From assembly GCA_963695195.1 (NCBI GenBank), contig CAVOGE010000007.1, positions 408,494-472,493 on the forward strand: a DNA stretch of 64,000 bases, in the 5' to 3' direction. How positions within the stretch are numbered: position 1 is the stretch's first letter; each line of letters begins with the position of its first letter. Of the stretch, positions 3,775 through 61,785 are shown piece by piece. The position numbers and the translations under genes were made by a program. A model generated the notes under the pieces. The model did not search any database. It worked only from the letters and a program-made list of their open reading frames with translations, and was not told the DNA's origin. This DNA comes from an uncultured Chloroflexia bacterium. GTDB lineage: Bacteria > Chloroflexota > Limnocylindria > QHBO01.

Positions 3775-3851
3775 TGGTCGGGGCGAGAGGATTTGAACCT
3801 CCGGCCTCATCGTCCCGAACGATGCGCGCTACCTGGCTGCGCCACGCCCCG
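3775..3851 (-). tRNA. tRNA-Pro (anticodon CGG)
   Basis: Reverse complement folds as a cloverleaf. Acceptor CGGGGCG/CGCCCCG, D-stem GCGC, anticodon stem CATCG/CGATG with loop TTCGGGA (anticodon CGG), T-arm GGAGG-TTCAAAT-CCTCT, 3' ACCA. Confidence 0.85.
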
Positions 3852-11418: not shown

Positions 11419-12177
11419 CTATGGCGCCCCAACGTAAGTCACCGTGACCTTGACGACCCGCAGGTCGATGCCAGCGGAGCCAGTGAGGGAGCAACGGGCT
11501 TGGTAGGCGTAGATGGCATTGTCGATGGGCGGGCCGCTGATCGTGGTGTCGACGAGCGTGGTGTAGCCGGGGGTGGCGGCTCCTCCGGAGCTCGGGGTGG
11601 AGGCCAGACCTGCCACGACGCCGTCTGACGTGACCCGCTGGAGACTGCACAATGTCCCGTAGGTGGCGGTGTTGTCGTACACGTCGCCCGCGAAGGCGGT
11701 GAGGGTGGCGCCATCGGGCAGGTGCACCGCGCAGGTCAGGGAGTCGATGCCAGAGGTCAGGTAGCGCTCGGCGAAGGTGCCGCCCAGGTAGCCGGTCGTG
11801 CTCATTGTGGGTGCCATGTCGTTGCCGGCGCAGCTGTAGTGCTGGGTCTGGTCCTTGCGCGCAAACTGGGACGAATCGATCCCATCGAGCTTGTCGGCGT
11901 TGACCACCGGGGTCTTGCCCGCAGCCAGCGCACCCAGCCGGTTCATGAAGGCCGCCATCTCGGCGCGGGTCACGTTGCGATCCGGACAGTACTTGCCGCC
12001 ACCACAGCCACTGGTCACCCCGGCATTGGTGATGGCCGCGATGTCAGCGTGGAACGGGTTGGAGTTGGGCACATCGCTGTACTGGTGGCTGGCCAACACG
12101 CCGAGCGGGAAGGCGACCAGGGTCAGGCTCAGGGCCAGTACCGCGACCGCACGACGAGACGAGATGGATCGACGCAT
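11419..12177 (-). CDS. secreted SLH-like domain protein (single N-terminal SLH, variable C-terminal domain)
   Basis: Signal peptide, then YSDVPNSNPFHADIAAITNAGVTSGCGGGKYCPDRNVTRAEMAAFMNRLGA, which matches the SLH pattern (F.D..., I..L...GI..G, VTRAEMA, F..RL). Paralog of 14115..14912. Confidence 0.75.
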   Translation of the reverse strand: MRRSISSRRAVAVLALSLTLVAFPLGVLASHQYSDVPNSNPFHADIAAITNAGVTSGCGGGKYCPDRNVTRAEMAAFMNRLGALAAGKTPVVNADKLDGIDSSQFARKDQTQHYSCAGNDMAPTMSTTGYLGGTFAERYLTSGIDSLTCAVHLPDGATLTAFAGDVYDNTATYGTLCSLQRVTSDGVVAGLASTPSSGGAATPGYTTLVDTTISGPPIDNAIYAYQARCSLTGSAGIDLRVVKVTVTYVGAP

Positions 12178-12282: not shown

Positions 12283-13989
12283 TCATAGCGCCCGATGCAG
12301 GAAGGCCGCCATCTGCTCGCGGGTGACGTTGCCCAGCGGGCAGTACAGGCCCGGCCCACAGCCGGAGGTGATGCCAGCTGCGCGGAAGGCGTTGATATCC
12401 GCTTCGTGGACGCTCGTCTCGTCATCGCTGAAGTAGTCGGTGGCAGTCGGCGGGAGGTCCATGGCGCGCACCAGGAATGAGGCCATCTGGGCACGGGAGA
12501 CGTTCGCCAGCGGGCAATACAGTCCGTCGCCGCAGCCGGTGGTGATCCCGGCGTCCGCCAGCGCGTTGATATCGGCCTCGTGGATGCTGGTCTCGTCATC
12601 GGGGAAGTAGTCGGTAGCGGTGGGTGGCAGCTTCAGGGCGCGCACCAGGAACGAGGCCATCTGGGCGCGGGAGACATTGGCCAGCGGGCAATAGTAGCCC
12701 CCGCCGCAGCCGGTGGTGATGCCGGCGTAGTAGAGCCAGTTGATGTCGTCGAGGAACGGCGAGGTGGTGACGTCGCCGAACGGCGGCGCCACGACGCGGT
12801 AGAGCGCGCCACCCAGGTGCGTGGCGTACAACTCGCCGCCCTCGCTCTCGCCGAACGAGCTGATGTTGAGCGACACCTGGCGGCGCTCTGTCGCCGCACT
12901 GCCACCGACCGGGATGGTCCACAGGCGTCCCGAGCAGTAGTCGGCGAAGACGTACTCGCCGAGCAGGTCCGGCTGCGTCGTTCCGCGGTACACGAAGCCG
13001 CCGGTCACCGAGCATCCGAGGCTGTGGCTGTACTCGGCGATCGGCAGCGTCAGCCCGGACTGGTTGCACGAGCCCGACGCGTAGCAGTGCGCGCCCTCCA
13101 TGACGTTCCAGCCATAGTTACGCCCGCCGGGATCGGCGAGCGCTTCTCGGTCGATCTCCTCCCAGCTGCCCTGGCCGACATCGCCGATCCACAGTGCCCC
13201 GGTCGATCGGTCGAAGCTGAAGCGCCAAGGGTTTCGGAGGCCGGAGGCCCAGATCTCCTCGAGCTCGGGGCCGCCGACGAATGGGTTGGTTGCCGGGATG
13301 GCGTACGTGCCGAAGGTGCCGTCACCGGAGCCGTCGACGTCGATGCGGAGGATCTTGCCCAGCAGCGTGGCCGTCGACTGCCCGTTGTCATCCGGGTCGC
13401 CACTGCCCCCGCCATCGCCGGTGCCGATGTACAGGTAGCTGTCAGAGCGAAAGGCGAGCTGTCCGCCGTTGTGGTTGCTGTTGGCGCTGTGCTCAATCCG
13501 CATGAGGAACTGCTCCGTCGCGCTGCTCGCCGCGGCAAGCCCGATGTTCGCCGTAAAGCGCGAGACGACCAGGTCGCCATCGGCCCTGGTGTAGTACACG
13601 TAGAAGAACCGGTTCGTCGTGAAGTCCGGATGGAAGGCAAGCCCCAGCAGGCCGCGCTCACCGCCCGCCAGGACGCGGTGGGTGATGTCGAGGAACGACC
13701 CGGCCTGCACTTTGCCGTTGAGCACCACCCGGATCCGGCCAGGGCGCTCCACCACGAAGAGGCGACCCGATCCGTCGCCCGCGTTGGTGACCGCGACCGG
13801 CGATGAGAGGCCTGTGGTGACCAGCTGCAGGTCGAGCTGATTCGCCGCCAGCGCCACCGGGGCGGCGGCGGCGATCGCGGGCTGCGGCTCCGGACGGGCT
13901 GCGACCGCCGGTGGCGTGGCCATCACAAGACCCAACAGCGCGAGCCCGATTGCAGCTTGCGAGCCGGGGCGACTGCCAGTGGGTCTCAT
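12283..13989 (-). CDS. PQQ-dependent soluble sugar (glucose/sorbosone) dehydrogenase beta-propeller fused to three C-terminal SLH-like repeats
   Basis: GSDH-family motifs NHNGGQLAFRSDSYLYIGTGDGGGSGDP and GLRNPWRFSFD. Three repeats of ...GITTGCG.G.YCPLANVSRAQMASFLVRAL at the C-terminus. Signal peptide present. Confidence 0.85.
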   Translation of the reverse strand: MRPTGSRPGSQAAIGLALLGLVMATPPAVAARPEPQPAIAAAAPVALAANQLDLQLVTTGLSSPVAVTNAGDGSGRLFVVERPGRIRVVLNGKVQAGSFLDITHRVLAGGERGLLGLAFHPDFTTNRFFYVYYTRADGDLVVSRFTANIGLAAASSATEQFLMRIEHSANSNHNGGQLAFRSDSYLYIGTGDGGGSGDPDDNGQSTATLLGKILRIDVDGSGDGTFGTYAIPATNPFVGGPELEEIWASGLRNPWRFSFDRSTGALWIGDVGQGSWEEIDREALADPGGRNYGWNVMEGAHCYASGSCNQSGLTLPIAEYSHSLGCSVTGGFVYRGTTQPDLLGEYVFADYCSGRLWTIPVGGSAATERRQVSLNISSFGESEGGELYATHLGGALYRVVAPPFGDVTTSPFLDDINWLYYAGITTGCGGGYYCPLANVSRAQMASFLVRALKLPPTATDYFPDDETSIHEADINALADAGITTGCGDGLYCPLANVSRAQMASFLVRAMDLPPTATDYFSDDETSVHEADINAFRAAGITSGCGPGLYCPLGNVTREQMAAFLHRAL

Positions 13990-14059
13990 GGGGCGCCCAC
14001 TCTACATCCGGGTTGCCAGTTGAAAGGGTCGAGGATGCGGGGGATGCAGCCGATCATCG

Positions 14060-14094
14060 AGAAGGAGCGCCCCCGCGTCGGGAGCGCTCCTTCT
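14060..14094 (-). terminator. stem-loop (11-bp perfect stem, 13-nt loop) immediately downstream of SLH gene 14115..14912
   Basis: AGAAGGAGCGC-ccccgcgtcggga-GCGCTCCTTCT. No U-tract follows, which is usual at this GC content. Confidence 0.4.
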
Positions 14095-14114
14095 CATCGG
14101 GAACCAAAGGCAGC

Positions 14115-14912
14115 CTAGGGCGCCTCTTTCACCGGCTTGGAGGCATCGTGCGGACTCAGGATGATCAGGCACGACAGGAACGGGGTGTTCCCCGCGCCGT
14201 CAAACGGAATGTACTCGACCATCAGGCTCGACTGGAGGATGTTCAGGTCGGCCCCGATGCTCCCGAACTCGAAGTCGACGGTGTAGGTCGCAGCGTCGCA
14301 CACCCGGTAGCCACCGGACGAGTTGCACGTCGTCTCATCCAGGACGGCGCCGCCGGAGACCCACTGGGTATCGACCCATCGATTCGAGCCCGACACCGCA
14401 CTGTTGTCGACCTCGAGCCAGCAGTTGGCGTCGTCGGTTCCGCCGGACGTTTCGTTATAGACGTACGACGTCCCGGTGATCATCAGGTACCCCCAGCCCG
14501 GGGTCGTGATGGTCGTCGTCAAGCGACCGCTGGAAGCCGCATCGCCGTCAACGGTGGTGGTGTTGTTGCTGGTGTAGGCGAGGCGGTTGAGCTCGTTGGC
14601 ACTCCAGCCATCGACCTTGGTGGCATTGACCACCGGGGTCTTGTTCGACGCCAGCGCACCCAGCCGGTTCATGAAGGCGGCCATCTCGGCGCGGGTCACG
14701 TTGCGATCAGGACAGTAGTTGCCGCCACCACAGCCGGATGTCACGCCGGCATTGGTGATGGCCGTGATGTCCCCGTGGAACGGGTTGCTGTCGGGGACGT
14801 CGCCGTACTGGTGGGTCGCCAGGGCCCCCAGCGGGAAGGCGACCAGGGCGACCACCATCGCGAGCGCGGCCAGGGCGCGCGGTCGGCGGCGGGATGGTCG
14901 GGGATCGGGCAT
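14115..14912 (-). CDS. secreted SLH-like domain protein, paralog of 11419..12177 with a different Ser/Thr/Gly-rich C-terminal domain
   Basis: AAGGAGGA RBS before the ATG at 14912. The first ~95 aa are near-identical to the paralog (YGDVPDSNPFHGDITAITNAGVTSGCGGGNYCPDRNVTRAEMAAFMNRLGALA). The C-terminus is unrelated. Confidence 0.75.
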   Translation of the reverse strand: MPDPRPSRRRPRALAALAMVVALVAFPLGALATHQYGDVPDSNPFHGDITAITNAGVTSGCGGGNYCPDRNVTRAEMAAFMNRLGALASNKTPVVNATKVDGWSANELNRLAYTSNNTTTVDGDAASSGRLTTTITTPGWGYLMITGTSYVYNETSGGTDDANCWLEVDNSAVSGSNRWVDTQWVSGGAVLDETTCNSSGGYRVCDAATYTVDFEFGSIGADLNILQSSLMVEYIPFDGAGNTPFLSCLIILSPHDASKPVKEAP

Positions 14913-14984
14913 CGCTGAAATCTCCTCCTTCGTCCGGGCGGCTTGCTGCTTCGCGCAGCGGAGTTGCATCGTATCGTGGCGGGC

Positions 14985-16403
14985 ATGCACGAAGCACCCT
15001 TCTCGCGCAGGTTCCCTGTCCGTGTACTACCGCGCTCCGCGCTGGTGCTGCTCCTCGCCGCGATGGCCGCCGTCGCCGTCGGCGATCTACTCGAGGTCGT
15101 GGCACGGCTGCGCATGGGCCTGGACGCCAGCGTAGGAGGGGGAGGACTCGCATTGACGCTGGCGGCCGTGCTGGCCTCGGCGCTGCTGATCCTGTGGCTC
15201 ACGCGGCGTCCCGTGCGGGATCGTCTCGACCCCGCCGCCCTGCTGGTTGGCCTGGGGCTGTTGCTTGCATTGAGAGTCGTGGCGGTGCTCCTCGTGGACG
15301 CACCCCTGATCGTGGATTGGCGCCGTTATCACGAGCTGGCAGTCAGCATCTCGCAGGGCGGCGACTGGTTCGCCAGTCGACCGAGCGGCTACGCGCTGCT
15401 AGTCAGCGTCGGTTACCGGGTCTTCGGCCCGAGCCCTGCGGTTGGCGAGTGGCTGAACGTGGGGCTTGGATTGGCGAGCGGCCTGCTCATCTACGCTGTG
15501 GCACTGCGAGCGGCGGGGTCCCGTGCGGCAGGCGTGGCCCTGCTGCTGTACGCCGTCGCCCCAGCCGAGATCCTGATGACCCCCGTCCTGGGCACCGAAA
15601 TCGCATACGGAACCGTCCTCGTCGGCGTCGCCTGGGTGCTCCTGGCCGCTCCACTCTCCGTCGTCCGAGCCGCCGTCGCCGGCGCGGCGCTCGGTGCCTC
15701 CCAGTACGTGCGCGCCACAAGCCAGGTGCTGGCACCCGTTCTGGCGATCGGGGCCGGGTGGCTGGCAGCCCCGGGCCGGCGCCTGCTGATCGGCCTTGCC
15801 TTCGCGGCGTCATTCGCCGCCGTGCTCCCACCCGTGGTCGTGACCAACATGGAGCGCGGCTCGGGTCCTTCTCTCTCGACCTCGTCGTTTTCGGCGTGGC
15901 AGCTGCTGATCGGCACCAACCAGGAGCACGACGGGCGCTTCAACCCGGACGACGTTGCGCTGGTGGGCGGAGAAGCGGCCCTGGGGACGGCGGAGGCCGA
16001 GCGCATCGCGCTGAGAGTTGCCCTGGAGAGGATCGGCGAGGACCCGGTCGGCACGCTCGGCCTGGTTGTGCGCAAGTTCCCCGTCGTGTGGGGTGACGCC
16101 CACTACGGCGCTCGCTGGGCGCTGTACGAAGACCCGGCCCAGGAGCCACAGACGACGCAGGCGTTCGTGCTGCTCAGTCAGCTCGCCTGGGCGGTGGTCG
16201 CGGCACTCGCCGCGGTGGGTGCCTGGCGCGGACGCGCCGGCTCGGCGCAGACAGTGGCGCTGCTGGGTGCGATCCTTGCCGTCTTCGTGCTGGTCCATGC
16301 CCTCGGCGAGGCGAATCCCCGCTACCACGCACCGCTGGTGCCGATCTTCAGCGTGCTGGCCGGTATCGGCGCGGCCAACTTGCTGGCGAACCGGGAGAGT
16401 TAG
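14985..16403 (+). CDS. GT-C membrane glycosyltransferase, PMT/ArnT-like (GT39/GT83 family)
   Basis: Multi-TM protein with the first-loop DxxRYxExA motif (DWRRYHELAVSISQG) typical of polyprenyl-P-sugar-dependent PMT/ArnT transferases. The 3' end overlaps the SLH beta-helix gene by 4 nt. Confidence 0.7.
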   Translation: MHEAPFSRRFPVRVLPRSALVLLLAAMAAVAVGDLLEVVARLRMGLDASVGGGGLALTLAAVLASALLILWLTRRPVRDRLDPAALLVGLGLLLALRVVAVLLVDAPLIVDWRRYHELAVSISQGGDWFASRPSGYALLVSVGYRVFGPSPAVGEWLNVGLGLASGLLIYAVALRAAGSRAAGVALLLYAVAPAEILMTPVLGTEIAYGTVLVGVAWVLLAAPLSVVRAAVAGAALGASQYVRATSQVLAPVLAIGAGWLAAPGRRLLIGLAFAASFAAVLPPVVVTNMERGSGPSLSTSSFSAWQLLIGTNQEHDGRFNPDDVALVGGEAALGTAEAERIALRVALERIGEDPVGTLGLVVRKFPVVWGDAHYGARWALYEDPAQEPQTTQAFVLLSQLAWAVVAALAAVGAWRGRAGSAQTVALLGAILAVFVLVHALGEANPRYHAPLVPIFSVLAGIGAANLLANRES

Positions 16404-18649
16404 CGGAAGGCGCGGTGCAGGAAGGCGGCCATCTGGCCACGGGTGACCAGCCCCTTGGGGCAGTAGGTCGTGGCCGTGCAGCCACTGGTGATGCCCGCCG
16501 CTGCGATGGCGTTGATCGCCGCCTGGTGGATGCTCGCGGAGTCATCGGTGAAGAAGTCAGTGGCCGACGGTGGCAGATGCAATGCCCGGGCGAGGAATGA
16601 GGCCATCTGCTCTCGGGTGACCGATGCGGTCGGGCAGTAGAGGCGCGTCCCGCAGCCGCTGGCGACGCCGGCCGCGGCGACGCGGTTGATATCGGCCTCG
16701 AACATGGATCCGTCGTCGTCATCGAAGGCGTCGGGCGCGCTTCCTGCCAGGCCGAGCGCCCGCGACAGGAATGCTGCCATCTGCCCGCGCGAGACCACCG
16801 CGTCCGGGCAGTATCGGTCTGGCGCGCACCCGCTGGTGATGCCGGCGTCGGCGATCCAGATGATGTCGTCCCGGAAGATCGAGTTGGCGATGTCGATGAA
16901 TCCGTCCGCCCATTTGGCGCCAACCGGGGTCCCACCAACGCCTGCGGAGTACTGGAACGAGTTGCTGCCCACGGTCAGGAAGCCAGGATCGGAGGTGAGC
17001 GTGCTCAGGTAGCCAGGCGGCTGGTAGTTCACGGCGGTGGCGCTCGGGCTGCCGAGCAGGTCCGCGCCGGTGTTGCCGTACAGGCCGCTGTGGTCGAGTG
17101 TCGCCGAGTTGCCGGTCACCAGCCAGACGCCGTAGCCACGGTTGCCGGTGACGAGCGTGTGGTTGATGGTGATGCTCGACGGCGCGACCTGGTAGCCGCC
17201 GATCTTGACCCCTTCGGCCCGGTTCCACCAGATCGTGTCGTGGTCGAGCGTCTTGTTGCTCGTCCCACGATCGACCATGACGCCGATCCCGTTGTCCCAG
17301 TACAGATTCCGTGACGACGTGAGGCGGCCGGCGCCGGAACCGTTGTATCCGTCGAACAGGTACAGGCCGAATCGACGGTTTCCCCAGACCTCGTTGCGCT
17401 CGACCAGCGTGTCCTGCACCGCCGGCATGCTCGATGCCTCCTGGGTGACATGGACCCCGACATCGTTGCCCCAGATGCGGTTTTCGCTCACCGTGGTGGT
17501 GCGCGCGCCATTGGCCACCGTGATCCCCGACGCGTTGTTGTAGGCGCTGCCGGTCGGATTGAAGTCCTGGTCGTGGAGGTCGTTGCGGCAGACGAGGTTG
17601 CCGCTGGTCGTACCCGTGTAACTGCTTCCCGAGACGGGGCCCTGCACCTTGATCCCCTGGAGCCCGTTGTCGTGGACGTCGTTGTCGCAGACGGTGGCGC
17701 CGGTGGTGCCCTCGTCGAGCTTGATCGCCTGGAGCGTGTTGAAGGCAGCCTCGTTGCGCTGGATGAGTGCACCGGTCGCAGGGTCAGCGCCCGAGCCTGT
17801 CTGCTCGCCGGAAACGGCCACCCCCATGTACAGGTTGCCGATCAGCCGGTTGTCGGATGCCTCGCCGTTATCGACCCCCTTGGCGAAGGCGATCCCATTG
17901 GCCGAGTGCCGGACCTCGAAGCCGCGCACCGCGACGTTATTGACGGGGTAGCGGCCGTCGAAGTAGAAGGCGTTGCGCACGATGACATCGATCCGATGGC
18001 TTCCCGGATTCGCGGCGGGCACGGTCGAGAGATACAGCTGCTTGGCCGCCGAATCCCACCAGTAGCCGCCGAGGCCGCTCGCCGCCCGGGAATTCAGCGC
18101 GGACAGGCTGGTCTGCTCCCAGAGCCAGGTCGTCTCGTCCTGGAAGACGGCCGTCTTGATCGAGCCGCTCGAGGTCGGGAAGCCGAACGGCGCAGTCGTC
18201 CAGGGCGTCTTCCAGACACCAGCCGTTCCGGTCGAGGACCAGCTCTTGCCGGGTGCCGGGGCGGCATCGGCGCCGGACACGACCGGCCGCGTGTATCCGC
18301 TGCTGGTGCCGTTGTAGCCGTATGCCTCGAATGCAATCGGCGCACTCACGCTGCCATACCGGTCCCAACTGGGCGGCACGGGTCGCTCGCGGTAGACGTA
18401 GTCGGCATAGCCGACAACCTGGATCGTCCAGCCGGCGGCAGACCCCGCCGGCAGGCTGCTGGCGGCTTTGCTGATCGTCTTGAAGGCCGATCCCAGGCTC
18501 GTCCCGGCGTCGCTGTCACTGCCGGTCTTGCCGTCCACGTAGAAGGTGCCGCCGGCAGCTGCGGCCGCGGGGGGCGGTGCAACCGCAAGCAGCGTCGCCA
18601 TCAGCGCGACGGCGGAGAGCAGGGAGACACAACGGCGAACGGCAGCCAT
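16400..18649 (-). CDS. secreted right-handed parallel beta-helix (pectate-lyase-like, PbH1 repeats) protein with three C-terminal SLH-like repeats
   Basis: Signal peptide. Repeated N.(V/I)W.N..G... beta-helix rungs (NRIWGNDVGVHV, NEVWGNRRFGLYL, NLYWDNGIGVMV, TIWWNRAEGVKI). C-terminal 3x ...AGITSGC....YCP..VTR.QMA.FL.RA. Confidence 0.8.
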   Translation of the reverse strand: MAAVRRCVSLLSAVALMATLLAVAPPPAAAAAGGTFYVDGKTGSDSDAGTSLGSAFKTISKAASSLPAGSAAGWTIQVVGYADYVYRERPVPPSWDRYGSVSAPIAFEAYGYNGTSSGYTRPVVSGADAAPAPGKSWSSTGTAGVWKTPWTTAPFGFPTSSGSIKTAVFQDETTWLWEQTSLSALNSRAASGLGGYWWDSAAKQLYLSTVPAANPGSHRIDVIVRNAFYFDGRYPVNNVAVRGFEVRHSANGIAFAKGVDNGEASDNRLIGNLYMGVAVSGEQTGSGADPATGALIQRNEAAFNTLQAIKLDEGTTGATVCDNDVHDNGLQGIKVQGPVSGSSYTGTTSGNLVCRNDLHDQDFNPTGSAYNNASGITVANGARTTTVSENRIWGNDVGVHVTQEASSMPAVQDTLVERNEVWGNRRFGLYLFDGYNGSGAGRLTSSRNLYWDNGIGVMVDRGTSNKTLDHDTIWWNRAEGVKIGGYQVAPSSITINHTLVTGNRGYGVWLVTGNSATLDHSGLYGNTGADLLGSPSATAVNYQPPGYLSTLTSDPGFLTVGSNSFQYSAGVGGTPVGAKWADGFIDIANSIFRDDIIWIADAGITSGCAPDRYCPDAVVSRGQMAAFLSRALGLAGSAPDAFDDDDGSMFEADINRVAAAGVASGCGTRLYCPTASVTREQMASFLARALHLPPSATDFFTDDSASIHQAAINAIAAAGITSGCTATTYCPKGLVTRGQMAAFLHRAFR

Positions 18650-18721: not shown

Positions 18722-19918
18722 CTACCGAATCGGGTGGCCGAGGCCCTCGATCAGGTCGAGCAGCTTGGTCCGCTGGCCCGGCCAGCCCATCTGGTGGGCG
18801 GCTGCACGACCGCCTCGCCGGTACGCGGCGCGGACCTCCGGGTCGGCCATCTCGGCGATCGCGTCGGTCAACTCCTCGACCGACCGGCCGCTGACCAGGC
18901 GCACCTGGTCCGCAAGGTGTCGCCGCAACATGGCCGTCGCGGTCACGACCACCGGGACTCCGAGGGTCACGTACTCGAGCACCTTTGTCGGCAGGCCGTC
19001 CTCGGAGAATGACGAAGGCCGATAGGGCGCCACGCCAACGTCGATCCGCGCCGTGAATGCCTCGAGATCGTCGTGCGAAAAGGTACGCCGGTCGAAGTCG
19101 ATGACGTCTGCCGCCCTCGACTTCGAGATGATCGTCTCCAGCTCGTCCGCGAAGTCGCCGTCCCCAAGGATCGAGAGCGTGACGAGCACGCCACGCGCAC
19201 GAAGGGCGGCCACGGCGTGCACCGCCTGGTCGACGCCGAACCGCTCCACGATCGTCCCGTGGTGCCCGAGGCGCAGCGGCTGATCCACCGTGGGCGGTCC
19301 GGCGGCGTACGGCTCCTCCGCCCGACGATCCCCCACGGGCAGCCAGTCGTCGGCATCGGGCGCGTTCCAGACCCCGACCACGTGGGTGCCGTCGCGTGCC
19401 ATCTCGGCGAGCCGCTCGGCGTAGATGTCGTGGATCGTGATCAGGGCGTCGGCGAACCGCACGCTGCGCCGCTCGATCCGCTCAATGAGCCACCCGGCCG
19501 CCCCCCGACCCCCGAACTTGGCCTGGTAGAGGTCCGATGTCAGGTCGTGGATGTCGAGCACGACCGGCAGCCCACGCATGCGCGCGACGAGGGCGGCGAA
19601 GACCAGAAAGTCCGGAGGGTTATTGACGTAGACCACGTCCACGCGGCGCCGAAGCACCCTCCCGGTCACCGCGCCAAATGCGCGCGTCGTAACGGCGAGA
19701 TACGCAAGCAGGTAGGCAATGCGGCTGGCGCCCCGATACTTGCGAGCACCGAGCGAAACAAGGGTCACGCCATCCCGCCGCGCGGCGTCGACGGAGTGCT
19801 CGTCGACGAGCGCAGCCACCTCCACCTGGTAACCAGCCCCCGCGAGGGCGCGTGCGTGCCGGCGCACCCGTGAGTCACGGGCATAGGCTTCGTAGACGAT
19901 CAGAAGGACGCGTCGCAC
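18722..19918 (-). CDS. glycosyltransferase family 4 (GT-B)
   Basis: GT4 C-terminal motif region (PSSFSEDGLPTKVLEYVTLGVPVVV). Start set at the GTG giving VRRVLLIVYEAYARD, divergent from wecB. The 5' half of ORF 18722..20584 is junk. Confidence 0.75.
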   Translation of the reverse strand: MRRVLLIVYEAYARDSRVRRHARALAGAGYQVEVAALVDEHSVDAARRDGVTLVSLGARKYRGASRIAYLLAYLAVTTRAFGAVTGRVLRRRVDVVYVNNPPDFLVFAALVARMRGLPVVLDIHDLTSDLYQAKFGGRGAAGWLIERIERRSVRFADALITIHDIYAERLAEMARDGTHVVGVWNAPDADDWLPVGDRRAEEPYAAGPPTVDQPLRLGHHGTIVERFGVDQAVHAVAALRARGVLVTLSILGDGDFADELETIISKSRAADVIDFDRRTFSHDDLEAFTARIDVGVAPYRPSSFSEDGLPTKVLEYVTLGVPVVVTATAMLRRHLADQVRLVSGRSVEELTDAIAEMADPEVRAAYRRGGRAAAHQMGWPGQRTKLLDLIEGLGHPIR

Positions 19919-19988
19919 GGGATCTCGAGTATAAGCGCGCCCATGGACCACGCCCTGCTGTGCGCGGCGCAGGGCATACTTCCGGGCG

Positions 19989-21110
19989 ATGACCGACTCA
20001 GCCCCACACCCCATCGCGGTCTTCTTCGGGACGCGACCGGAGGTCATCAAGCTGGCACCGGTGATCCTCGAACTCCGCGCGCGGAAGGCGCCGACCGTGG
20101 TAGTGACCACTGGGCAGCACCGCGAGCTGGTCGATGACCTCCTCGACCTGTTTGGGATCAGCGTGGACGAGGACCTGAACCTGATGCGGCCTCGCCAGTC
20201 GATCGACCACGTGCTGGCCGGTGCGGTGACCGGGATCGGTCGCGCGCTGGAGCGATACACACCGCGCGCCGTCATCGTCCAGGGCGATACGACGAGCGCA
20301 CTCGGCGCCGCGCTCTCCGCGTTCCACCGCCACCTCCCGCTCGCCCACGTGGAGGCCGGCCTCCGATCGAATGACCTGGCCCTCCCGTTCCCCGAGGAGT
20401 TCAACCGGCGGGTGACGAGCCTTGTGGCGAGGTGGCATTTCGCACCGACCGATGCGGCAGCCGAGAACCTGCGACGCGACGGCGTCGGAGGCGAAATCTG
20501 CGTGACCGGCAACACCGTGGTGGATGCGCTGCGCCTGATCGAGGGGCGCGGCGTCCCGATGTCACAGGGAGCGGCGGACTTCATCGGCGACGCCCCCTTG
20601 CTGTTGGCGACGGCTCATCGCCGAGAGTCGTGGGCACGCGGCATTGCGGCCATCGCCGGTGCGCTCGCTGACGTGCTCGACGCGACGCCGGACTTGCGCC
20701 TCGTCTTCGTGACGCATCCAAACCCGGTCGCCCGCCGGCCGGTCGAACAGGCACTCGGGCATCACGATCGGGCGATGGTCGTTGATGCGGTCGCCTACTC
20801 GGAATTCATCGCCCTGCTGCGACGAGCAACCCTGATCGTCAGTGATTCTGGCGGCGTGCAGGAGGAAGGGCCGACGCTCGGCATCCCCGTCCTGGTTACC
20901 CGCGCTGTCACCGAGCGGCCCGAAGGGCTGGATGCGGGAGCGGTGCGGCTGGTCGGCACCGATCGGGCCACGATTCGCGACACGACGCTGGCGCTGCTGG
21001 GCAACCCCGCGGCGCGCGCCGAGATGTCGAATGCCGGCCGTACCGTCTATGGCGATGGCCACGCGGCCGAACGCATCGTCGACGTCCTGCTGGGCAAGGC
21101 GGCGTGCTGA
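19989..21110 (+). CDS. wecB: UDP-N-acetylglucosamine 2-epimerase (non-hydrolysing)
   Basis: [43 protein letters not shown] and the C-terminal YGDGHAAERIVDVL are all hallmarks of the WecB/MnaA family. Confidence 0.9.
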   Translation: MTDSAPHPIAVFFGTRPEVIKLAPVILELRARKAPTVVVTTGQHRELVDDLLDLFGISVDEDLNLMRPRQSIDHVLAGAVTGIGRALERYTPRAVIVQGDTTSALGAALSAFHRHLPLAHVEAGLRSNDLALPFPEEFNRRVTSLVARWHFAPTDAAAENLRRDGVGGEICVTGNTVVDALRLIEGRGVPMSQGAADFIGDAPLLLATAHRRESWARGIAAIAGALADVLDATPDLRLVFVTHPNPVARRPVEQALGHHDRAMVVDAVAYSEFIALLRRATLIVSDSGGVQEEGPTLGIPVLVTRAVTERPEGLDAGAVRLVGTDRATIRDTTLALLGNPAARAEMSNAGRTVYGDGHAAERIVDVLLGKAAC

Positions 21111-22471
21111 ACGAGCCGGCTGAGGGCGATGCACGGGACGCCGAACGCGCCGAGGTCCGCTCGTTCGGGGGTGCGGTCGTCCAGCTGACGGTGGTCCGCA
21201 TCGGTTCGGTGGTTGCCGGATTTCTGGCGAGCGTGCTCGCCGCACGCCTGATCGGTGCCGACGGTCTCGGGCTTGCCGGATCGGCGTTCACCATTGCCAC
21301 CGCCGGTGCGTTGCTGTCCAGCGGCGGACTGAACATCGCGGCCATCTACTTCCTCGGCCGCCGGCCCGGCGAACAGGGGCAGGTCGTCGCACGCACGCTC
21401 ACGCTTGGTGTGGGGGCAGCGGTGCTGGCGGTCCTGGTCGTGCTGGGCGCAGGGCTGGCGTTGCGCACGGTCGTCCTCGGCGAAGCGGACGGCACCGTAT
21501 TGCTGGCTGCCGCCGCACTGGCGGCCACGATCCTGACGTTCGAGCTGATCGGTGGGCTCCTGCTCGGCCTTCATCGTCGCACCGCGTACATCGTGGTCCA
21601 GGCGACCGAGGCGATCGGGTCACTGGCGCTGACCGCATTACTGCTGCTCATCGTGGATCGCTCCGCGGCGAGTTATCTCGCCGCGGCGGCACTCGGCTAC
21701 GCCGGCGGCGCACTGATCGCCTGGGTGGCGATACGCCGTCACGTGGGGCCCATCCGTCCTGACTTCGCGCCCGCCTTCGCGCGGGAGGCGCTGGGCATGG
21801 GTTTGCGCGGACAGGTTGGCAACATCCTCCAGTACCTCAGCCTGCGGCTCGATCTCGTGCTCGTCGCCGCCCTCCTCGACCTGCGAGCGGCGGGGATCTA
21901 CTTCGTCGCGGTGCGCGTCAGCGAGGTGGTGACCCAGGTCGCAACCTCGGCGTCCGCATTCCTCTTCCCGCAGGTGGCGGCGCAGACCGAGCGCCGCTCG
22001 ACGCGCGTCACCGAACAGATCACGCGCCTGACGCTGGTGACGGTGGTGGCCGGCGGACTCATCCTCGCGGCCGTGGCTGAGCCGCTGCTGCGTCTCGCCT
22101 TCGGCGATGAGTTCGCGACCGGCGCCGACGCCGTGCGGATTACGCTGCTCGCCATGCTGCCGTTGACACTCACCCGTCTGATCGCCGGCGATCTGAAGGG
22201 CCGCGGCCGACCCGGACTCGTTTCGTGGGCCGCCTTCGTCGGCCTGGTCGCCACCGTGTCGCTCGACCTCGTCCTCATCCCACGGCTGGGAATCGTCGGC
22301 GCGGCGCTTGCCTCCCTGCTCAGCTACGCGGCCGGCGCCGCGTTCATGCTCGGTGCCTACCGCCGCCTGACCGGTTCACGGATCGGCGCCCTGGTGCCGC
22401 GCCTCGGCGACCTGCGGGTGCTGGTCGATCTGGCCTGGGCCGGCGGGCGTCGTCGAGGTGACTCCCGTTGA
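21104..22471 (+). CDS. oligosaccharide flippase (Wzx/MOP superfamily; CsaA-like)
   Basis: 455 aa, about 12-14 TM helices, polysaccharide-biosynthesis-protein topology. Overlaps wecB by 7 nt and csaB by 4 nt. Confidence 0.8.
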   Translation: MLNEPAEGDARDAERAEVRSFGGAVVQLTVVRIGSVVAGFLASVLAARLIGADGLGLAGSAFTIATAGALLSSGGLNIAAIYFLGRRPGEQGQVVARTLTLGVGAAVLAVLVVLGAGLALRTVVLGEADGTVLLAAAALAATILTFELIGGLLLGLHRRTAYIVVQATEAIGSLALTALLLLIVDRSAASYLAAAALGYAGGALIAWVAIRRHVGPIRPDFAPAFAREALGMGLRGQVGNILQYLSLRLDLVLVAALLDLRAAGIYFVAVRVSEVVTQVATSASAFLFPQVAAQTERRSTRVTEQITRLTLVTVVAGGLILAAVAEPLLRLAFGDEFATGADAVRITLLAMLPLTLTRLIAGDLKGRGRPGLVSWAAFVGLVATVSLDLVLIPRLGIVGAALASLLSYAAGAAFMLGAYRRLTGSRIGALVPRLGDLRVLVDLAWAGGRRRGDSR

Positions 22472-23535
22472 ACGGGCGGGTGCGAGCTGTCGCGCTCGGC
22501 TACCAGGGTTTCGGCAACGTCGGCGACGAGGCCATCCTGGCGGGCATCGAGGAGCTCCTCAGCGACAGCCACGTGGAGGTCGTGGCGGTGGTGGGCGGTC
22601 ATGAGCAGATCCCGGCGTACCCTGCGGCTCGCCGCATCGCGACGCGCCGGATGCGCCCGAACCTCGCTTCACTCCGCGCGCTCAGTCGTGCCCGACTCCT
22701 GCTGGTGAGCGGTGGCGGGCTGCTGCACGACCACTGGGTCACCGTGGTGCCGACCTATCTCGCCTGGATGCTCCTGGCCCGCCTGACGGGGACACGTGTC
22801 GTATGGGTCGGCGTGGGCGTCGGGCCGCTCGACCGACCGATACTGAGGCGCATGGCCGGCTGGGCGCTCCGGCTTGCCGCATGCGTGACGGTGCGAGATC
22901 CCGAATCGGCACTGCTCGTGGCCAGGATCGCACCACGCGTGAAGGTGACCGTCGTCCCGGATCCTGCGCTGCTCATGGCCCCGCCTGCGGCTCGACCGAG
23001 GAGCGGGATCGGCTTCGTGGTGCGCGGGCCGACTCCCGGGCGCGACGGCGAAAGCGACGAGATGATTGGTGGCCTCGCCAGGGCCGCAGCGAACGCGGGA
23101 AAGGGCGATGTCCGTCTGCTCACGTTTGGCGGCCCGCGGGATCGCGCCTTCGCCGACGCGGTTCGAGGACTGGCGGCGCAGGACGGCAGCACCCTGCCGA
23201 TCGAGGAGCTCGGCCCTGACCCGCGCCAGGCGCTGGAGGTGCTGGCTGGGCTGCAAGCGGTCGTAACCGTGCGACTGCATGGTCTCCTGCTGGCGGCGCT
23301 CGCGGGCACCCCGGCGGTCCCGATCGCCTATGACGACAAGGTCGCGAGCATGGCCCGCCACCTGGGCCTCCACGAAGCCTGCCAGCCAGTCACGGGACTC
23401 ACCGGGCACGGCATCACTGCCGCGCTTGCCTCCGTCCAGACCGAAAAGCAACGAGAACTGGTGGCAGGTCGCTTGATCGAGATCCGATCGAACGCTGCCT
23501 TGCTCCGGCGCCTGATCGAGGCGGCAGCCCAGTGA
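22468..23535 (+). CDS. csaB: polysaccharide pyruvyl transferase (PF04230; CsaB family)
   Basis: N-terminus LGYQGFGNVGDEAILAGI matches the CsaB start (GYYGF.N.GDEAIL). Size is 355 aa. Sits directly after wecB and the flippase, as in the Bacillus csaAB arrangement. Confidence 0.8.
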   Translation: MNGRVRAVALGYQGFGNVGDEAILAGIEELLSDSHVEVVAVVGGHEQIPAYPAARRIATRRMRPNLASLRALSRARLLLVSGGGLLHDHWVTVVPTYLAWMLLARLTGTRVVWVGVGVGPLDRPILRRMAGWALRLAACVTVRDPESALLVARIAPRVKVTVVPDPALLMAPPAARPRSGIGFVVRGPTPGRDGESDEMIGGLARAAANAGKGDVRLLTFGGPRDRAFADAVRGLAAQDGSTLPIEELGPDPRQALEVLAGLQAVVTVRLHGLLLAALAGTPAVPIAYDDKVASMARHLGLHEACQPVTGLTGHGITAALASVQTEKQRELVAGRLIEIRSNAALLRRLIEAAAQ

Positions 23536-24704
23536 CGGACGCATCCGCGACACTGCCCACCCGTGTGGACGTGCTGCTGGCGGTCGGCTATGACCCGGAC
23601 GTTCGCGTGCGACGCATCACGCAGGCACTCGCCGGCGCCGGGTGCCGGGTGAGGATCCTGGCCTGGGATCGTGACGGCACGCGCCCCACGGCCGAGGGCG
23701 ATGGGCCAGTCAGTGTCAGGAGGGTTTCAGTGAGAAGTCGCTGGGGTCGCGGCTGGACGCAGGTCTTCGCCCTTCCCCGGCTCTTCATCCGCTACCTCGC
23801 CGCCGTGCGCCGCCGCCGACCGGACGTGCTGCACGCCGTCGACCTGCCGATGCTCGTTGCGGCCGTGCTGATCGCCCCCTTCGCCGGGCGTCCGCGAATC
23901 GTGTATGACGCCTTCGAGGTGTATCGGTTGATGGTCAGCCACCGGCTGCCGACCCCGATCCTGTGGGCGATCGGCCTGCTCGAGCGGCGGCTGCCGCGCC
24001 GGGCTCAGCTGGTGGTTACTCCGGGCGAGCGCCGACGCGCGTACTTCGCCAGGCTCGGCGTCAGTTCGATCTCGATCCCCAACTGGGTCGATCCGCCCCC
24101 AGTCCGACCGGATCGCGCCGCAGCCCGCGGTGATCTGCAGATCCCGCCAGACACCTTCTGCGTGGCCTACGCGGGCGCGCTCAACGAGGCCCGTGACGTC
24201 GACGCCCTGCTGCGCCACGCTCGGCGCAGGCCGGACCACCTGGTGATCATCGCCGGGACCGGGGAAGACGAGCCGCGTCTCCGGACCATGGCTGCGGACC
24301 TGCCGAACGTGCGCCTGGCCGGCTGGCTGGCCGACCCGTCGGGCCTGCTTGCCGCGGCGGATGCGATGTACTACGCGCTGCGGCCAGACCACCCGTATGC
24401 GGCACTGGCGGCGCCGAACAACCTGTACGTCGCCATCGCGCACCAGGTCCCGCTGGCGTATCGCGCGCAGGGTGAACTCGCCGAGGTCGGCGAGCAGCAC
24501 GAGATCGGGGTGCCATTCAGCGACGACGAGTCACTTGATGCCGCCCTCGACCAGCTGGCCGACCCGCAGGTCAATGGTCGCGTCCGCGGCAGCCTGGCAG
24601 AGCTCGGCGAGAGCTACCGCTGGGAGATCGCCGCCGAGCGGCTGGTCCGCGTGTACCCGATGAACGGGAGCGCCGCGAGCAGCGCCACGCCGAAGGGACC
24701 GTAG
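23532..24704 (+). CDS. glycosyltransferase family 4
   Basis: ATGA overlap with csaB. GT-B architecture with a C-terminal E-x7-E-like region. Confidence 0.7.
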   Translation: MTDASATLPTRVDVLLAVGYDPDVRVRRITQALAGAGCRVRILAWDRDGTRPTAEGDGPVSVRRVSVRSRWGRGWTQVFALPRLFIRYLAAVRRRRPDVLHAVDLPMLVAAVLIAPFAGRPRIVYDAFEVYRLMVSHRLPTPILWAIGLLERRLPRRAQLVVTPGERRRAYFARLGVSSISIPNWVDPPPVRPDRAAARGDLQIPPDTFCVAYAGALNEARDVDALLRHARRRPDHLVIIAGTGEDEPRLRTMAADLPNVRLAGWLADPSGLLAAADAMYYALRPDHPYAALAAPNNLYVAIAHQVPLAYRAQGELAEVGEQHEIGVPFSDDESLDAALDQLADPQVNGRVRGSLAELGESYRWEIAAERLVRVYPMNGSAASSATPKGP

Positions 24705-26101
24705 CCGCCGACCGCAAACGATTGGGTGACGGTGAGCGCCAGGATGCCGAGCCACCCGGCGACAAACCAGCCGCGCGGTATGCGTCGCGCTCGCCGGGCC
24801 GCAGCGACCAGGGGGAGCAGGAGGAGAGCACCGAACGCGGTCACGCCCAACGCCCCGGCTTTCAGCGCCACCGTCAGGTAGGCGTTATCCACCCCTGGCT
24901 GCTTGCCGATGGTGTGCGCTCTCGACTCGTTGTAGGCGAATCGAACGTCGACCAGCTGGCCGAAGCCATTGCCAAGCAACGGCGCGTCGGCGATCACCCG
25001 CATCGCGTTGAGGTAGGTCGCGAATCGTCCACCCGAAGCCACCGAGCCGATGATCACCGTGATGTCCGACTGTTCATCGCCAAAGGTGATCCGATCGAAC
25101 GGATCCTCCGGCGTGGAGGAGGACGAGCTTCCGACAACGGTCCAGGTGCGCGGCGTCCCGAGCCTGCTCACGCCGATGCCGCCAACAAACCCGACGAGCA
25201 GCGCCAGGGCCACCGCCGCGGAGGTGCGCCATGGGGGCATGCTCCAGCTTCCGCGGCGCCGACCGTCGAGGAGGTGCGCGGCACCGACGAGCAGCACGAC
25301 CGTGATGGTCACCAGCAGCGAGGTCCGGGTGAGGGTCAGCACCTGGGCCGAGAAGAGGAGCGCAAGCCAACCGACACGCCAGCTGACAGGGTGCCGGAGC
25401 AGCCCCCAGGTCGCGTAACCGACGGCAGGCACGAGGAAGATGCTGTTGCCGAACTGCATGCGCAGGGTGCCGCGGTCGTACGTCAGCGCGGAGAACTTCA
25501 GCCCGCCCTCGATAACCGGCCCGACAGCGGTCGCCACGACGACGATTGCCAGCGCCGTCGCCCCCAACAGCAGGCCGCGCACCAATGCAGCACGGCTCGT
25601 CCCGCTCAATACGGCCAGCGGAGCGGCGGCGTAGAACGCCCACCAGCGGGCGTCGCGCAGCACGTCTCGCATCGCGAAATCGCCGAGTGTTCCACCTGCC
25701 AGCGCAGCGGCACCCACGAGCAGGAGCACGCCGCTGGCAACGACGAACGCAGTGGCGCCGGGGAGCGCAAGGCGATCGCGGATTCGGGCCCGGTCACGTA
25801 CGACCCCAACCGTCGCGCCGGCCAGGGCGAGCCCGATCGCGAGGTCCGGAGGCCGAATCGGAAAGCCGGCCACCAGCCAGGGCGTCACGTCGGCTCCCCG
25901 TCCGTAGGGCAGCGCGATCGCGACAAGCAGGCCAGCAGGCAACCAGCCAAGGCGCCGATCTGCTGCAAGGCCCACGGTGGCCACGCCTGCCAATCCGACC
26001 GCTGGCCACCAGGCTGGCAGGCCCACCACACTTGCGGCAGCCAGGAAGAGAGCAACCCAACCGATCAGGGGCAAACGGGCACGGACAAGTGCGCTGCTCA
26101 T
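24614..26101 (-). CDS. O-antigen ligase / Wzy-type polymerase family membrane protein
   Basis: Polytopic protein with a large periplasmic loop (PF04932-like). Start set at MSSALVRARL (26101). The upstream part of ORF 24614..26416 is junk. The 3' end overlaps the convergent GT4 by ~90 nt. Confidence 0.65.
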   Translation of the reverse strand: MSSALVRARLPLIGWVALFLAAASVVGLPAWWPAVGLAGVATVGLAADRRLGWLPAGLLVAIALPYGRGADVTPWLVAGFPIRPPDLAIGLALAGATVGVVRDRARIRDRLALPGATAFVVASGVLLLVGAAALAGGTLGDFAMRDVLRDARWWAFYAAAPLAVLSGTSRAALVRGLLLGATALAIVVVATAVGPVIEGGLKFSALTYDRGTLRMQFGNSIFLVPAVGYATWGLLRHPVSWRVGWLALLFSAQVLTLTRTSLLVTITVVLLVGAAHLLDGRRRGSWSMPPWRTSAAVALALLVGFVGGIGVSRLGTPRTWTVVGSSSSSTPEDPFDRITFGDEQSDITVIIGSVASGGRFATYLNAMRVIADAPLLGNGFGQLVDVRFAYNESRAHTIGKQPGVDNAYLTVALKAGALGVTAFGALLLLPLVAAARRARRIPRGWFVAGWLGILALTVTQSFAVGGYGPFGVALLAALPFIGYTRTSRSAAISQR

Positions 26102-26108
26102 CTCCGAC

Positions 26109-45812: not shown

Positions 45813-46015
45813 GACCAGCCGCCGGTGTGACGCAGGCGGACCTCAGCCCTCCCGCTCGCCAGTGTAGGGGTCGGGCGACGACATGCGCAAAGGTACTAAC
45901 CACACTCGAACAACCTTCTGGCGCATGGATGCACCACCTTGCTCGGAGGGCCGGAGCGTGCCGTTTGCTAGAATCAAGCCCCGCCAGCCTCCCCGACGTC
46001 CCATTTGCAGGTGCC

Positions 46016-50711: not shown

Positions 50712-50741
50712 CAGCGCGTGGACTCCTCCATCAATGCGTGG

Positions 50742-50818
50742 TGGTCGGGGCGGCCCGATTCGAACGGGCGACCTCCTGCTCCCAAAGCAGGCGCGCTGCC
50801 AGGCTGCGCCACGCCCCG
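50742..50818 (-). tRNA. tRNA-Pro (anticodon UGG)
   Basis: Reverse complement CGGGGCG-TG-GCGC-AGCCTGGCAGCGC-G-CCTGC-TTTGGGA-GCAGG-AGGTC-GCCCG-TTCGAAT-CGGGC-CGCCCCG-ACCA forms a complete cloverleaf. Confidence 0.85.
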
Positions 50819-51083
50819 CCGTTTCGCGCTCAGTATCGCCGGGTCGCACCGGTGAGCGGGCCGCAATGCTCGCACACCCGCTGCGCTGGCGCTGGATCAG
50901 CCGGCCAGAGGCCTGGGCGCCGGCCAGTTCCCGGTCCACCTGCACGCAGAAGTTGGCGATTGACGCCGGTGGGTGGGCCGCATACTGTCCGCACGTCGCG
51001 CGACTTGCACCGGCGCCGCCAACGGATCTGTTGGGGTGTTCCGCCGTCGCCACGATCGAGCGATGCGGAGGACAGTGTCGACC

Positions 51084-61754: not shown

Positions 61755-61785
61755 GCGTGCTCCATTGGGGCGGCAATTGTATCCA

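Follow-up and report, generated by a model that had tools for sequence, protein, structure and literature searches.

The interval from 12283 to 18649 of a 64-kb stretch of DNA from a Limnocylindria-like Chloroflexota genome (contig CAVOGE010000007.1; the whole stretch is referred to here as the window) encodes two enzyme-like modules, each fused to three S-layer homology (SLH) repeats, and appears to be the protein-display end of a cell-envelope island. We put this reading as a whole, that of a wall-polymer display island with two enzyme-like SLH-anchored cargoes, at a probability of roughly 0.6. In the proposed mechanism, a Wzx/Wzy pathway made up of a priming transferase, family 4 glycosyltransferases (GT4), a WecB/MnaA epimerase, a CsaB-like pyruvyl transferase, Wzx, Wzy and LCP ligases would build a pyruvylated secondary wall polymer, probably containing N-acetylmannosamine (ManNAc), and ligate it to peptidoglycan; four Sec-exported proteins would then bind this polymer non-covalently through their SLH repeats, each repeat being stapled by a putative Cys-x5-Cys disulfide. 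The first cargo, an HHIP-like propeller of the glucose/sorbosone dehydrogenase (GSDH) family, would work at the wall and oxidise a sugar hemiacetal or aldehyde there with pyrroloquinoline quinone (PQQ) or a related quinone, using a His173/Asp192 base together with Arg252-Asn253 and holding the quinone otherwise than soluble glucose dehydrogenase (sGDH) and Asd do. The second, a GH120-like but catalytically divergent beta-helix, may trim, cleave or modify the cell's own polymer, and in an SLH-bearing subclade the repeats would hold it in place. By analogy, the system itself is a known one, namely SLH display of enzyme cargo on a secondary cell wall polymer that bears pyruvyl groups; modestly new are the host phylum, here represented by a soil/freshwater lineage, the putatively Cys-stapled SLH repeats, an HHIP-like GSDH cargo with a remodelled pocket, and a GH120-like orphan family associated with loci for wall glycans.

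The original prediction, made from the letters and a list of open reading frames (ORFs), had proposed two surface-displayed enzymes. Both ORFs are present exactly where it had placed them, on the minus strand, with a GC content at third codon positions (GC3) of 0.87-0.88, as in real genes; window GC is 69%, and the class median for Ca. Limnocylindria is 68.9% (PMC10608941). Pfam matches, which greatly exceed what chance would give, and confident AlphaFold2 models bear out the two architectures, a GSDH domain with three SLH repeats in 12283..13989 and a beta-helix with three SLH repeats in 16400..18649, and we concur that both are secreted cargo on C-terminal SLH trimers and not lattice-forming S-layer proteins. 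The single-SLH gene at 14115..14912 lies within the interval and went unmentioned there, as did a fourth SLH gene a little beyond it (11419..12177) and the adjacent glycan locus, which accounts for the SLH anchors. The genes and modules of the display end are as follows.

12283..13989, minus strand: GSDH-SLH gene, 568 residues; signal peptide, HHIP-like six-bladed GSDH propeller and three SLH repeats
13897..13989, minus strand: predicted signal peptide, about residues 1-31, read from the sequence as ending ...LLGLVMATPPAVA, with probable cleavage before the A that follows
12787..13836, minus strand: six-bladed propeller, residues 52-401 (hhalign to E. coli YliI, probability 99.3)
12286..12783, minus strand: three putatively Cys-stapled SLH repeats of GSDH-SLH, residues 403-568 (GITTGC-x4-YCP...SRAQ twice, then GITSGC-x4-YCP...TREQ)
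16400..18649, minus strand: beta-helix-SLH gene (ORF), 749 residues
16925..18553, minus strand: beta-helix module, of a small family
16403..16900, minus strand: three putatively Cys-stapled SLH repeats of beta-helix-SLH, residues 584-749
14115..14912 (mechanical ORF to 14990), minus strand: single-SLH secreted protein, 265 residues from its likely start
11419..12177, minus strand: paralogous single-SLH protein, 252 residues

The propeller cargo and its putative quinone pocket

GSDH-SLH matches Pfam GSDH over residues 62-371 (PF07995, E 2.4e-43), and its AlphaFold2 model, built on 48 homologues, has a predicted local distance difference test score (pLDDT) of 88.7, with residues 1-43 below 50. 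The nearest solved protein by sequence is HHIP (E 4.6e-28, 33% identity), and with the blade-6 motif SFGE(D)..GE(L/V)Y kept as well, the propeller belongs with the HHIP-like branch. Residues were compared through a profile alignment to E. coli YliI (hhalign) and an 84-sequence alignment; a PDB search with just the propeller's C-terminal half produced no useful alignment to bacterial enzymes. The motifs that the original prediction had picked out, HNGG, GDGG and RNP, fall at residues 173-176, 191-194 and 252-254. Within them, His173, Asp192, Arg252 and Asn253 are invariant in 82/82 relatives, across phyla, and D260, D270, E277, E298, C326, D350 and C352 are equally invariant (82/82). The first four align with YliI H147, E166, R214 and N215; the catalytic His is the equivalent of sGDH H144, and Arg252-Asn253 are those of R228/N229 at the quinone. 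In sGDH, this Arg-Asn pair contacts the PQQ quinone oxygens. Such invariance marks the pocket as strongly selected and not decayed. With the soluble PQQ dehydrogenases, namely sGDH (1C9U), YliI/Asd (2G8S), 7CDY, 2ISM from T. thermophilus and 3A9G from P. aerophilum, the protein shares the Pfam GSDH domain, His173, Asp192 and Arg252-Asn253, the Q/G loop at the Ca site, and export; unlike them, it carries two extra conserved Cys pairs, the SLH fusion, and the subfamily-specific invariant residues D270, E298 and D350.

What, then, would hold the quinone? Several results weigh against PQQ catalysis here. Cys352, within D-[YF]-C-S-G, replaces the Lys at the C7 carboxylate (YliI K314, sGDH K377) in 82/82 relatives; YliI, 2ISM and 3A9G have a basic residue there, in the context L-[KR]. 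The blade-6 RxR(D/E)V (sGDH R406/R408), seen in all four solved chains with an aligned C-terminal part (2G8S, 7CDY, 2ISM and 3A9G), gives way to the HHIP-type N/S-I-S-S-F-G-E. Against TIGR03606, GSDH-SLH scores 54.7 bits for a cutoff of 434.55. No CxxCH motif occurs in 19 long or fused propeller relatives, so that the easy redox argument through a cytochrome c fusion is gone, and the gene's neighbourhood encodes neither a cytochrome nor any other electron acceptor. Candidate substitutes for the clamps fared poorly: R256 and R335 are invariant in the subfamily, but HHIP has both, and R355 and R369/R370 are not kept in the wider family. The PQQ carboxylate clamps having been replaced, PQQ dependence of the propeller is unproven. 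The original assignment as a PQQ enzyme thus survives at the catalytic His173/Asp192 and Arg252-Asn253, which are invariant, and fails at the Lys and RxR(D/E)V clamps, which are absent.

On the other side of the balance, the fungal AA12 enzyme CcSDH depends on PQQ even without several of the ligands that bacterial enzymes use for it (PMC4133262; PMC6881789), and absent residues therefore do not exclude PQQ use. Weighing conserved against missing residues, we give catalysis with PQQ or a related quinone a slightly better than even chance. Like the AA12 proteins (C. cinerea CcPDH, 6JT5/6JWF; T. reesei, 6I1T), GSDH-SLH is an extracellular six-bladed propeller fused to other modules; unlike them, it has different residues at the PQQ- and Ca-binding positions and none of the fused cytochrome that serves AA12 as an electron outlet. 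A 2026 preprint on lanthanide-binding six-bladed PQQ enzymes was considered and set aside, as it concerns AA12-like proteins and not the HHIP-like GSDH subfamily. Given the even cysteine count of the mature protein, C326 and C352 are more likely to form a disulfide than to serve as metal ligands.

The same replacements invite a different explanation, in which the propeller, like vertebrate HHIP, would bind without catalysing, as a wall lectin or receptor for a sugar, metal or protein that uses no quinone. We regard this explanation as unlikely, though as one to be taken seriously: the propeller has the HHIP-type SFGE..GELY in place of RxR(D/E)V and Cys in place of Lys, HHIP (3HO3, 2WFX) also has Arg at the R256 and R335 positions, there is neither an electron acceptor near the gene nor a cytochrome fusion among relatives, and the modules found fused to it in relatives (Calx-beta, InlB B-repeat, dockerin) are of the display or adhesion type. 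What argues for catalysis instead is that HHIP, a eukaryotic signalling-ligand binder, has lost exactly the Arg-Asn pair that is invariant here alongside His173 and Asp192, reading GLHDPG (His-Asp) where the window protein reads GLRNPW; HHIP is also without the C326/C352 pair. CcSDH and other AA12 proteins, again, use PQQ without several of the bacterial PQQ-binding residues (PMC4133262; PMC6881789), and the propeller module goes with oxidases by fusion or adjacency.

These oxidases are of two kinds. In a Dehalococcoidia locus (L060:3690-6893), a protein of 1068 residues joins Calx-beta, dockerin, an HHIP-like GSDH propeller and a Kelch domain resembling glyoxal oxidase and galactose oxidase. 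In at least five related loci, a lysyl-oxidase-SLH gene (Lysyl_oxidase PF01186, E 1e-9 to 1e-13) adjoins GSDH-SLH (L003:1694-2992, L005:11461-12873, L007:2116-3744, L011:9299-10582 and L055:11509-12792); the lysyl oxidase of these sister genomes carries three putatively Cys-stapled SLH repeats and would thus put another oxidase, of the quinone/copper type, on this kind of anchor. A tblastn search of the 64-kb window found no lysyl oxidase. The oxidase fusion and the oxidase neighbours together lend weak support to a redox role for the propeller. A bolder proposal, and to our minds a long shot, is that HHIP-like propellers form a class of wall-bound quinoproteins that lack the PQQ clamp, are paired with the SLH lysyl oxidase in sister genomes, and carry out redox chemistry on the cell's own envelope. 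If that were true, the pair would make and consume aldehyde or hemiacetal groups, for example in the oxidative cross-linking or remodelling of wall glycan or protein, and it would sit in a Chloroflexota lineage that keeps an ancestral SLH/CsaB system thought to have been lost from the phylum.

A PQQ dehydrogenase on an SLH anchor had been called unusual, and in one sense it is: a full-text literature search for the combination of GSDH and SLH found no paper. The architecture (PF07995 with PF00395) is not rare, however, as it occurs in at least 120 clusters at 57-100% identity, with both domains in all listed clusters, and is syntenic in Limnocylindria. Automated pipelines already annotate such proteins, as 'glucose/arabinose dehydrogenase' and as 'S-layer homology domain-containing protein'. 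Propellers without SLH repeats, at 43-59% identity, are found in Nitrospirota, Acidobacteriota, Dehalococcoidia, Actinomycetota and archaeal metagenome-assembled genomes (MAGs). The closest loci come from MAGs labelled Ca. Limnocylindria or Chloroflexota, with GSDH-SLH at 57-60% and serA at 67-68% identity. Two gene orders recur in Limnocylindria loci at about 57% identity: MnaA-CsaB-GT4...GSDH-SLH in L004 and L006, and GSDH-SLH, SLH protein, serA, metallo-beta-lactamase (MBL) hydrolase, FAD monooxygenase in L005 and L055.

The beta-helix cargo and its glycan context

The second large protein consists of a signal peptide, a right-handed beta-helix (Pfam Beta_helix PF13229, E 2e-15) and three SLH repeats (E 1.4e-14), and its AlphaFold2 model, built on 68 homologues, is confident (pLDDT 93.6). 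An exhaustive HMMER search of 1.84e9 representatives returned 76 hits for the beta-helix family at E<=1e-3, 21 of them at E<=1e-30, and a word-indexed search returned 135 relatives, about 20 clusters with SLH (~745 residues) and about 100 without (~580 residues). To judge from these searches, the family is a narrow orphan one. What type of enzyme could it be? The earlier description 'pectate-lyase-like' holds at the level of fold only: the absence of any Pec_lyase_C, Pectate_lyase_3 or Glyco_hydro_28 match speaks against a pectate or pectin lyase and against GH28, and the nearest structure is the GH120 enzyme XylC. NosD was rejected on a TIGR04247 score of 20.9 bits for a cutoff of 300 and the lack of nos gene context, and an AlgG/AlgE mannuronan C5-epimerase was rejected for want of a DPH in the sequence. 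The catalytic motif of AlgG/AlgE4 is DPHD/DPHE; the segments NDVHD and NDLHD of the window protein are not kept in the family consensus.

Apart from SLH hits, XylC (3VST) alone among PDB sequences matches the family profile at better than E 0.5 (E 1.5e-5, three collinear stretches), and it is also the best Foldseek match (E 2e-14, versus 5e-8 for the next); hydrolases, lyases and epimerases of polysaccharides head the structural matches. The layout of N-cap, beta-sandwich insert and beta-helix appears to be shared with XylC (PMC3507262), but XylC is a cytoplasmic tetrameric xylosidase, and the window protein is secreted, carries an SLH anchor and has its gene within a glycan-biosynthesis locus. 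Two observations count against an enzymatic role. The XylC nucleophile Asp382 and acid/base Glu405 (PMC3507262) align with Thr402 and Asn424 in an NRI-anchored HMMER register that is itself weak (1.8 bits), and no catalytic signature was matched in the beta-helix, nor any DPHD motif. Membership of GH120 was rejected on the ground that the Asp382/Glu405 pair is not kept; Asn424 is invariant in the beta-helix family.

One might therefore see the beta-helix as a structural or adhesive surface scaffold of the CASH/NosD kind, and not as an enzyme: its Pfam matches are confined to the generic families Beta_helix and NosD, it does not keep the catalytic pair of GH120, and no CAZy-type family signature was found in the protein. 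We think this improbable. The family is lined with strongly conserved polar residues (D260 and K310 invariant; H248, R298, Q307, K334, Q403, D433 and K466 at 90% or more), the collinear sequence similarity to GH120 seems to take in the cap and the beta-sandwich insert with its sugar-stacking Trp region, and in the examined loci the SLH-less forms, too, always lie inside glycan-biosynthesis loci.

Gene context is the strongest functional clue for the beta-helix. A complete Wzx/Wzy-type glycan pathway, which also includes a hexapeptide acyltransferase and a PIG-L deacetylase, adjoins the beta-helix gene from 18722 on, and a membrane protein gene lies on its other side.

14943..16403, plus strand: polytopic membrane protein, convergent with the beta-helix gene (sub-cutoff match to Pfam PMT_2, E 0.0079)
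18722..20584, minus strand: GT4 glycosyltransferase; domains from residue 239 of the mechanical ORF, real start probably near 19900
19989..21110, plus strand: non-hydrolysing UDP-GlcNAc 2-epimerase of WecB/MnaA type, UDP-ManNAc supplier (Pfam 1.6e-92; TIGR00236 377.8 bits, cutoff 210)
21104..22471, plus strand: Wzx-type flippase (Pfam Polysacc_synt 3e-12)
22468..23535, plus strand: CsaB-like polysaccharide pyruvyl transferase (Pfam PS_pyruv_trans 1.2e-29)
23532..24704, plus strand: GT4 glycosyltransferase
24614..26416, minus strand: Wzy-like polymerase, a weak match that narrowly misses its cutoff (Pfam Wzy_C 3.8e-07; 30.5 bits, cutoff 31.7)
28423..29829, plus strand: priming polyprenyl glycosylphosphotransferase (Bac_transf 8.8e-70; TIGR03025 388.6 bits, cutoff 295.6)
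41781..43154, minus strand: LCP-family glycopolymer-to-peptidoglycan ligase
45827..47437, plus strand: second LCP ligase

The mechanical ORF of the first GT4 overlaps the epimerase gene by ~600 nt, and with the later start the two genes are probably divergent. The product of 14943..16403 shows a weak likeness to the GT-C / PMT_2 glycosyltransferase family, and a PMT_2 gene also stands beside beta-helix homologues in loci L084 and L085.

That the beta-helix might process the organism's own glycan was part of the original prediction, and the context is in keeping with it, as the surrounding glycan genes are conserved in 5/5 examined loci. Three homologues without SLH repeats (P0151, P0219 and P0233) and one with them (P0135) are all encoded in glycan loci (L082-L085), among genes for Wzx, Wzy_C, GT4, PS_pyruv_trans, WecG, Epimerase_2, a UDP-sugar dehydrogenase and PMT_2. 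Because SLH-bearing and SLH-less homologues alike keep this company, the beta-helix is probably best read as an extracytoplasmic processing enzyme of the pyruvylated-glycan pathway, a hydrolase, lyase or epimerase, and one subclade is best read as having been fused to the anchor that would bind that glycan. In this it would resemble AlgG/AlgE4 (4NK8/2PYG) and V. cholerae RbmB (9OZD), extracytoplasmic beta-helices within, or acting on, their own polysaccharide pathways; unlike them it has no DPHD-type motif and no sequence-level match, and its substrate would be a wall-linked pyruvylated glycan in place of alginate or Vibrio polysaccharide (VPS). Near the SLH-bearing homologue in L085 there is also a gene for an FAD_oxidored protein of 881 residues with SLH (L085:12409-15054), and it seems that oxidoreductases of several kinds are displayed on SLH anchors in the Limnocylindria-like lineage.

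Could both cargoes instead be nutrient-acquisition exoenzymes for environmental polysaccharides and sugars, with the glycan locus nearby merely because it holds the anchor genes? There is precedent for the idea, in that SLH-anchored enzymes acting on external substrates are known and SLH repeats are reported to anchor 'other proteins' (10.1101/2021.05.31.446380), YliI and sGDH oxidise free aldoses (PMC13088180), and AA12 enzymes act in plant-biomass degradation (PMC4133262; PMC6881789). We nevertheless hold it to be improbable: the SLH-less beta-helix homologues need no anchor genes and yet sit in Wzx/Wzy/pyruvyl-transferase loci, and neither gene in the window is flanked by sugar transporters or catabolic genes.

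The SLH repeats and the polymer they would bind

A six-frame pattern scan of the window finds eight SLH repeats, all at 11.4-18.6 kb, three in each large protein (at about residues 403-455, 461-513 and 519-568 of GSDH-SLH, PF00395 E 6.5e-18, and 584-635, 641-693 and 699-749 of beta-helix-SLH) and one in each small one; the four proteins score 64.9, 54.2, 29.9 and 26.9 bits against PF00395, for which the cutoff is 20.8. A PHROGs search gave matches in the SLH region only. In the AlphaFold2 models, the trimers adopt the three-lobed three-helix-bundle fold and superpose on the SLH domain of B. anthracis Sap. SLH-Gly29 and SLH-Arg43, which bind pyruvyl-ManNAc (PMC6081394), are kept in all eight repeats, as G[IV][TA][TS]G and [ST]R[AEG][QE], and in GSDH-SLH the corresponding G427, G485, G543, R441, R499 and R557 are invariant in 48 homologues. 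A Cys pair, G-C-x4-[YF]-C-P, is likewise present in every repeat, placed directly after Gly29 with the second Cys six residues on. The pair is found in 8/8 window repeats and 38/38 repeats of related loci (L002-L009, L055) and is invariant in the 48 homologues; in the window, the pairs lie within 12301-12723, 16421-16843, 11947-12021 and 14673-14747. Mature GSDH-SLH has 10 cysteines and mature beta-helix-SLH has 8, all in near-neighbour pairs, and on this even, paired census we read the Cys pair as probably a disulfide-stapled loop in an exported protein.

The two small proteins are members of a multigene family of single-SLH proteins; the source contig has at least four paralogues, tandem arrays occur elsewhere, and the name that paralogues carry is 'S-layer homology domain-containing protein [Candidatus Limnocylindria bacterium]'. 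The protein of 14115..14912 has a single SLH repeat at its N-terminus, then a conserved KTPVVNAxKxDG linker and then a C-terminal domain that varies; that of 11419..12177 is 79% identical to it over the N-terminal 85 residues, and the C-terminal domains are unrelated. With one repeat only, such a protein would presumably need to trimerise to form a binding unit.

An SLH trimer together with 4,6-pyruvyl-ManNAc made via MnaA and CsaB is an established anchoring mechanism (PMC6081394), and the window matches it both in the adjacency of a UDP-GlcNAc 2-epimerase gene to a CsaB-like pyruvyl transferase gene and in the retention of the Gly29 and Arg43 found in Sap (B. anthracis, 3PYW/6BT4) and SpaA (P. 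alvei, 6CWC). The differences are that the SLH repeats here are C-terminal on enzyme-like cargo and those of Sap and SpaA N-terminal on a lattice protein, that each window repeat has a Cys pair and has Phe or His at SLH-Trp13, unlike the aligned Sap and SpaA repeats, and that, set against known SLH/CsaB hosts, the host is a Chloroflexota and its CsaB homologue falls below the NCBIfam cutoff. Two of these tell against the proposed ligand: the Trp13 stacking position, four residues before a conserved Ile, is Phe or His in 8/8 repeats, and the pyruvyl transferase has a single NCBIfam match, TIGR03609 S_layer_CsaB, whose score of 161.6 bits falls short of the cutoff (213.1). The Trp13 position does keep a ring, aromatic or imidazole, though it is not Trp.

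On these grounds one could propose that the repeats bind something else, such as modified peptidoglycan in the manner of OmpM in Negativicutes, or serve, in a diderm-like envelope, as tethers for an outer layer or membrane; the Phe or His at Trp13, the lineage-specific Cys pair beside Gly29, the sub-cutoff CsaB homologue and the ability of OmpM-type SLH to bind polyamine-modified peptidoglycan (10.1101/2021.05.31.446380) point that way, but we judge the proposal quite improbable in view of the CsaB-like, WecB-epimerase and LCP-ligase genes adjacent to and syntenic with the SLH genes, the Arg43 and Gly29 retained in 8/8 repeats, the enzyme-like cargo without a porin barrel, and the close fit of the structure to Sap and SpaA SLH with ligand bound.

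As a display arrangement, a catalytic-type module on an SLH triple, held non-covalently at the wall, recalls the SLH exoenzymes of Firmicutes. Examples there include the B. anthracis BSL proteins and the xylanases and pullulanases of thermophiles. The cargoes here are unlike theirs, and our literature search found no characterised SLH-anchored precedent for an HHIP-like GSDH or an orphan GH120-like beta-helix. In a survey of outer-membrane tethers, SLH and CsaB were reported as lost in the monoderm clade Chloroflexi/CPR/Dormibacteraeota (10.1101/2021.05.31.446380); the SLH/CsaB system at 11400-47500 of the window, with its two LCP ligases, is a counter-example to that loss.

Distal genes and the envelope of the lineage

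Farther along the window there is a second Wzx/Wzy/glycosyltransferase set with a UDP-sugar dehydrogenase, and the following features complete the list.

58909-61776, minus strand: fusion of a UDP-GlcNAc 2-epimerase (PF02350, 3.7e-87) with a DegT/DnrJ aminotransferase (2.1e-126), 955 residues, in the second glycan cluster
50742-50818, minus strand: tRNA-Pro(UGG), inside the mechanical ORF 49998-51053, minus strand
3775-3851, minus strand: tRNA-Pro(CGG)
1848-2681, minus strand: PEP-mutase-family protein (PF13714, 2e-72)
3911-5077, plus strand: second PMT_2-like membrane protein, near the PEP-mutase-family gene

In the mechanical ORF 49998-51053 (minus strand), Bac_transf covers residues 144-346 only, and the real protein starts downstream of the tRNA. 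A promoter and terminator scan of 11-19.2 kb gave nothing above shuffles.

None of the new features overturns a principle. What they offer is a picture of the envelope of Ca. Limnocylindria, an uncultivated class, in which a pyruvylated wall polymer would carry a diversified set of SLH-displayed proteins, and this picture contradicts the published view in which SLH and CsaB disappeared from Chloroflexi together with the outer membrane, and so bears on models of the diderm-to-monoderm transition. For enzymologists, there is a large cross-phylum HHIP-like GSDH subfamily that is annotated 'PQQ-dependent sugar dehydrogenase' despite a pocket without three canonical PQQ ligands; the cofactor question touches thousands of sequences and may bear on eukaryotic HHIP-like proteins as well. 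Additionally, a small beta-helix family is tied to the biosynthesis of pyruvylated glycan, which makes that glycan the candidate substrate.

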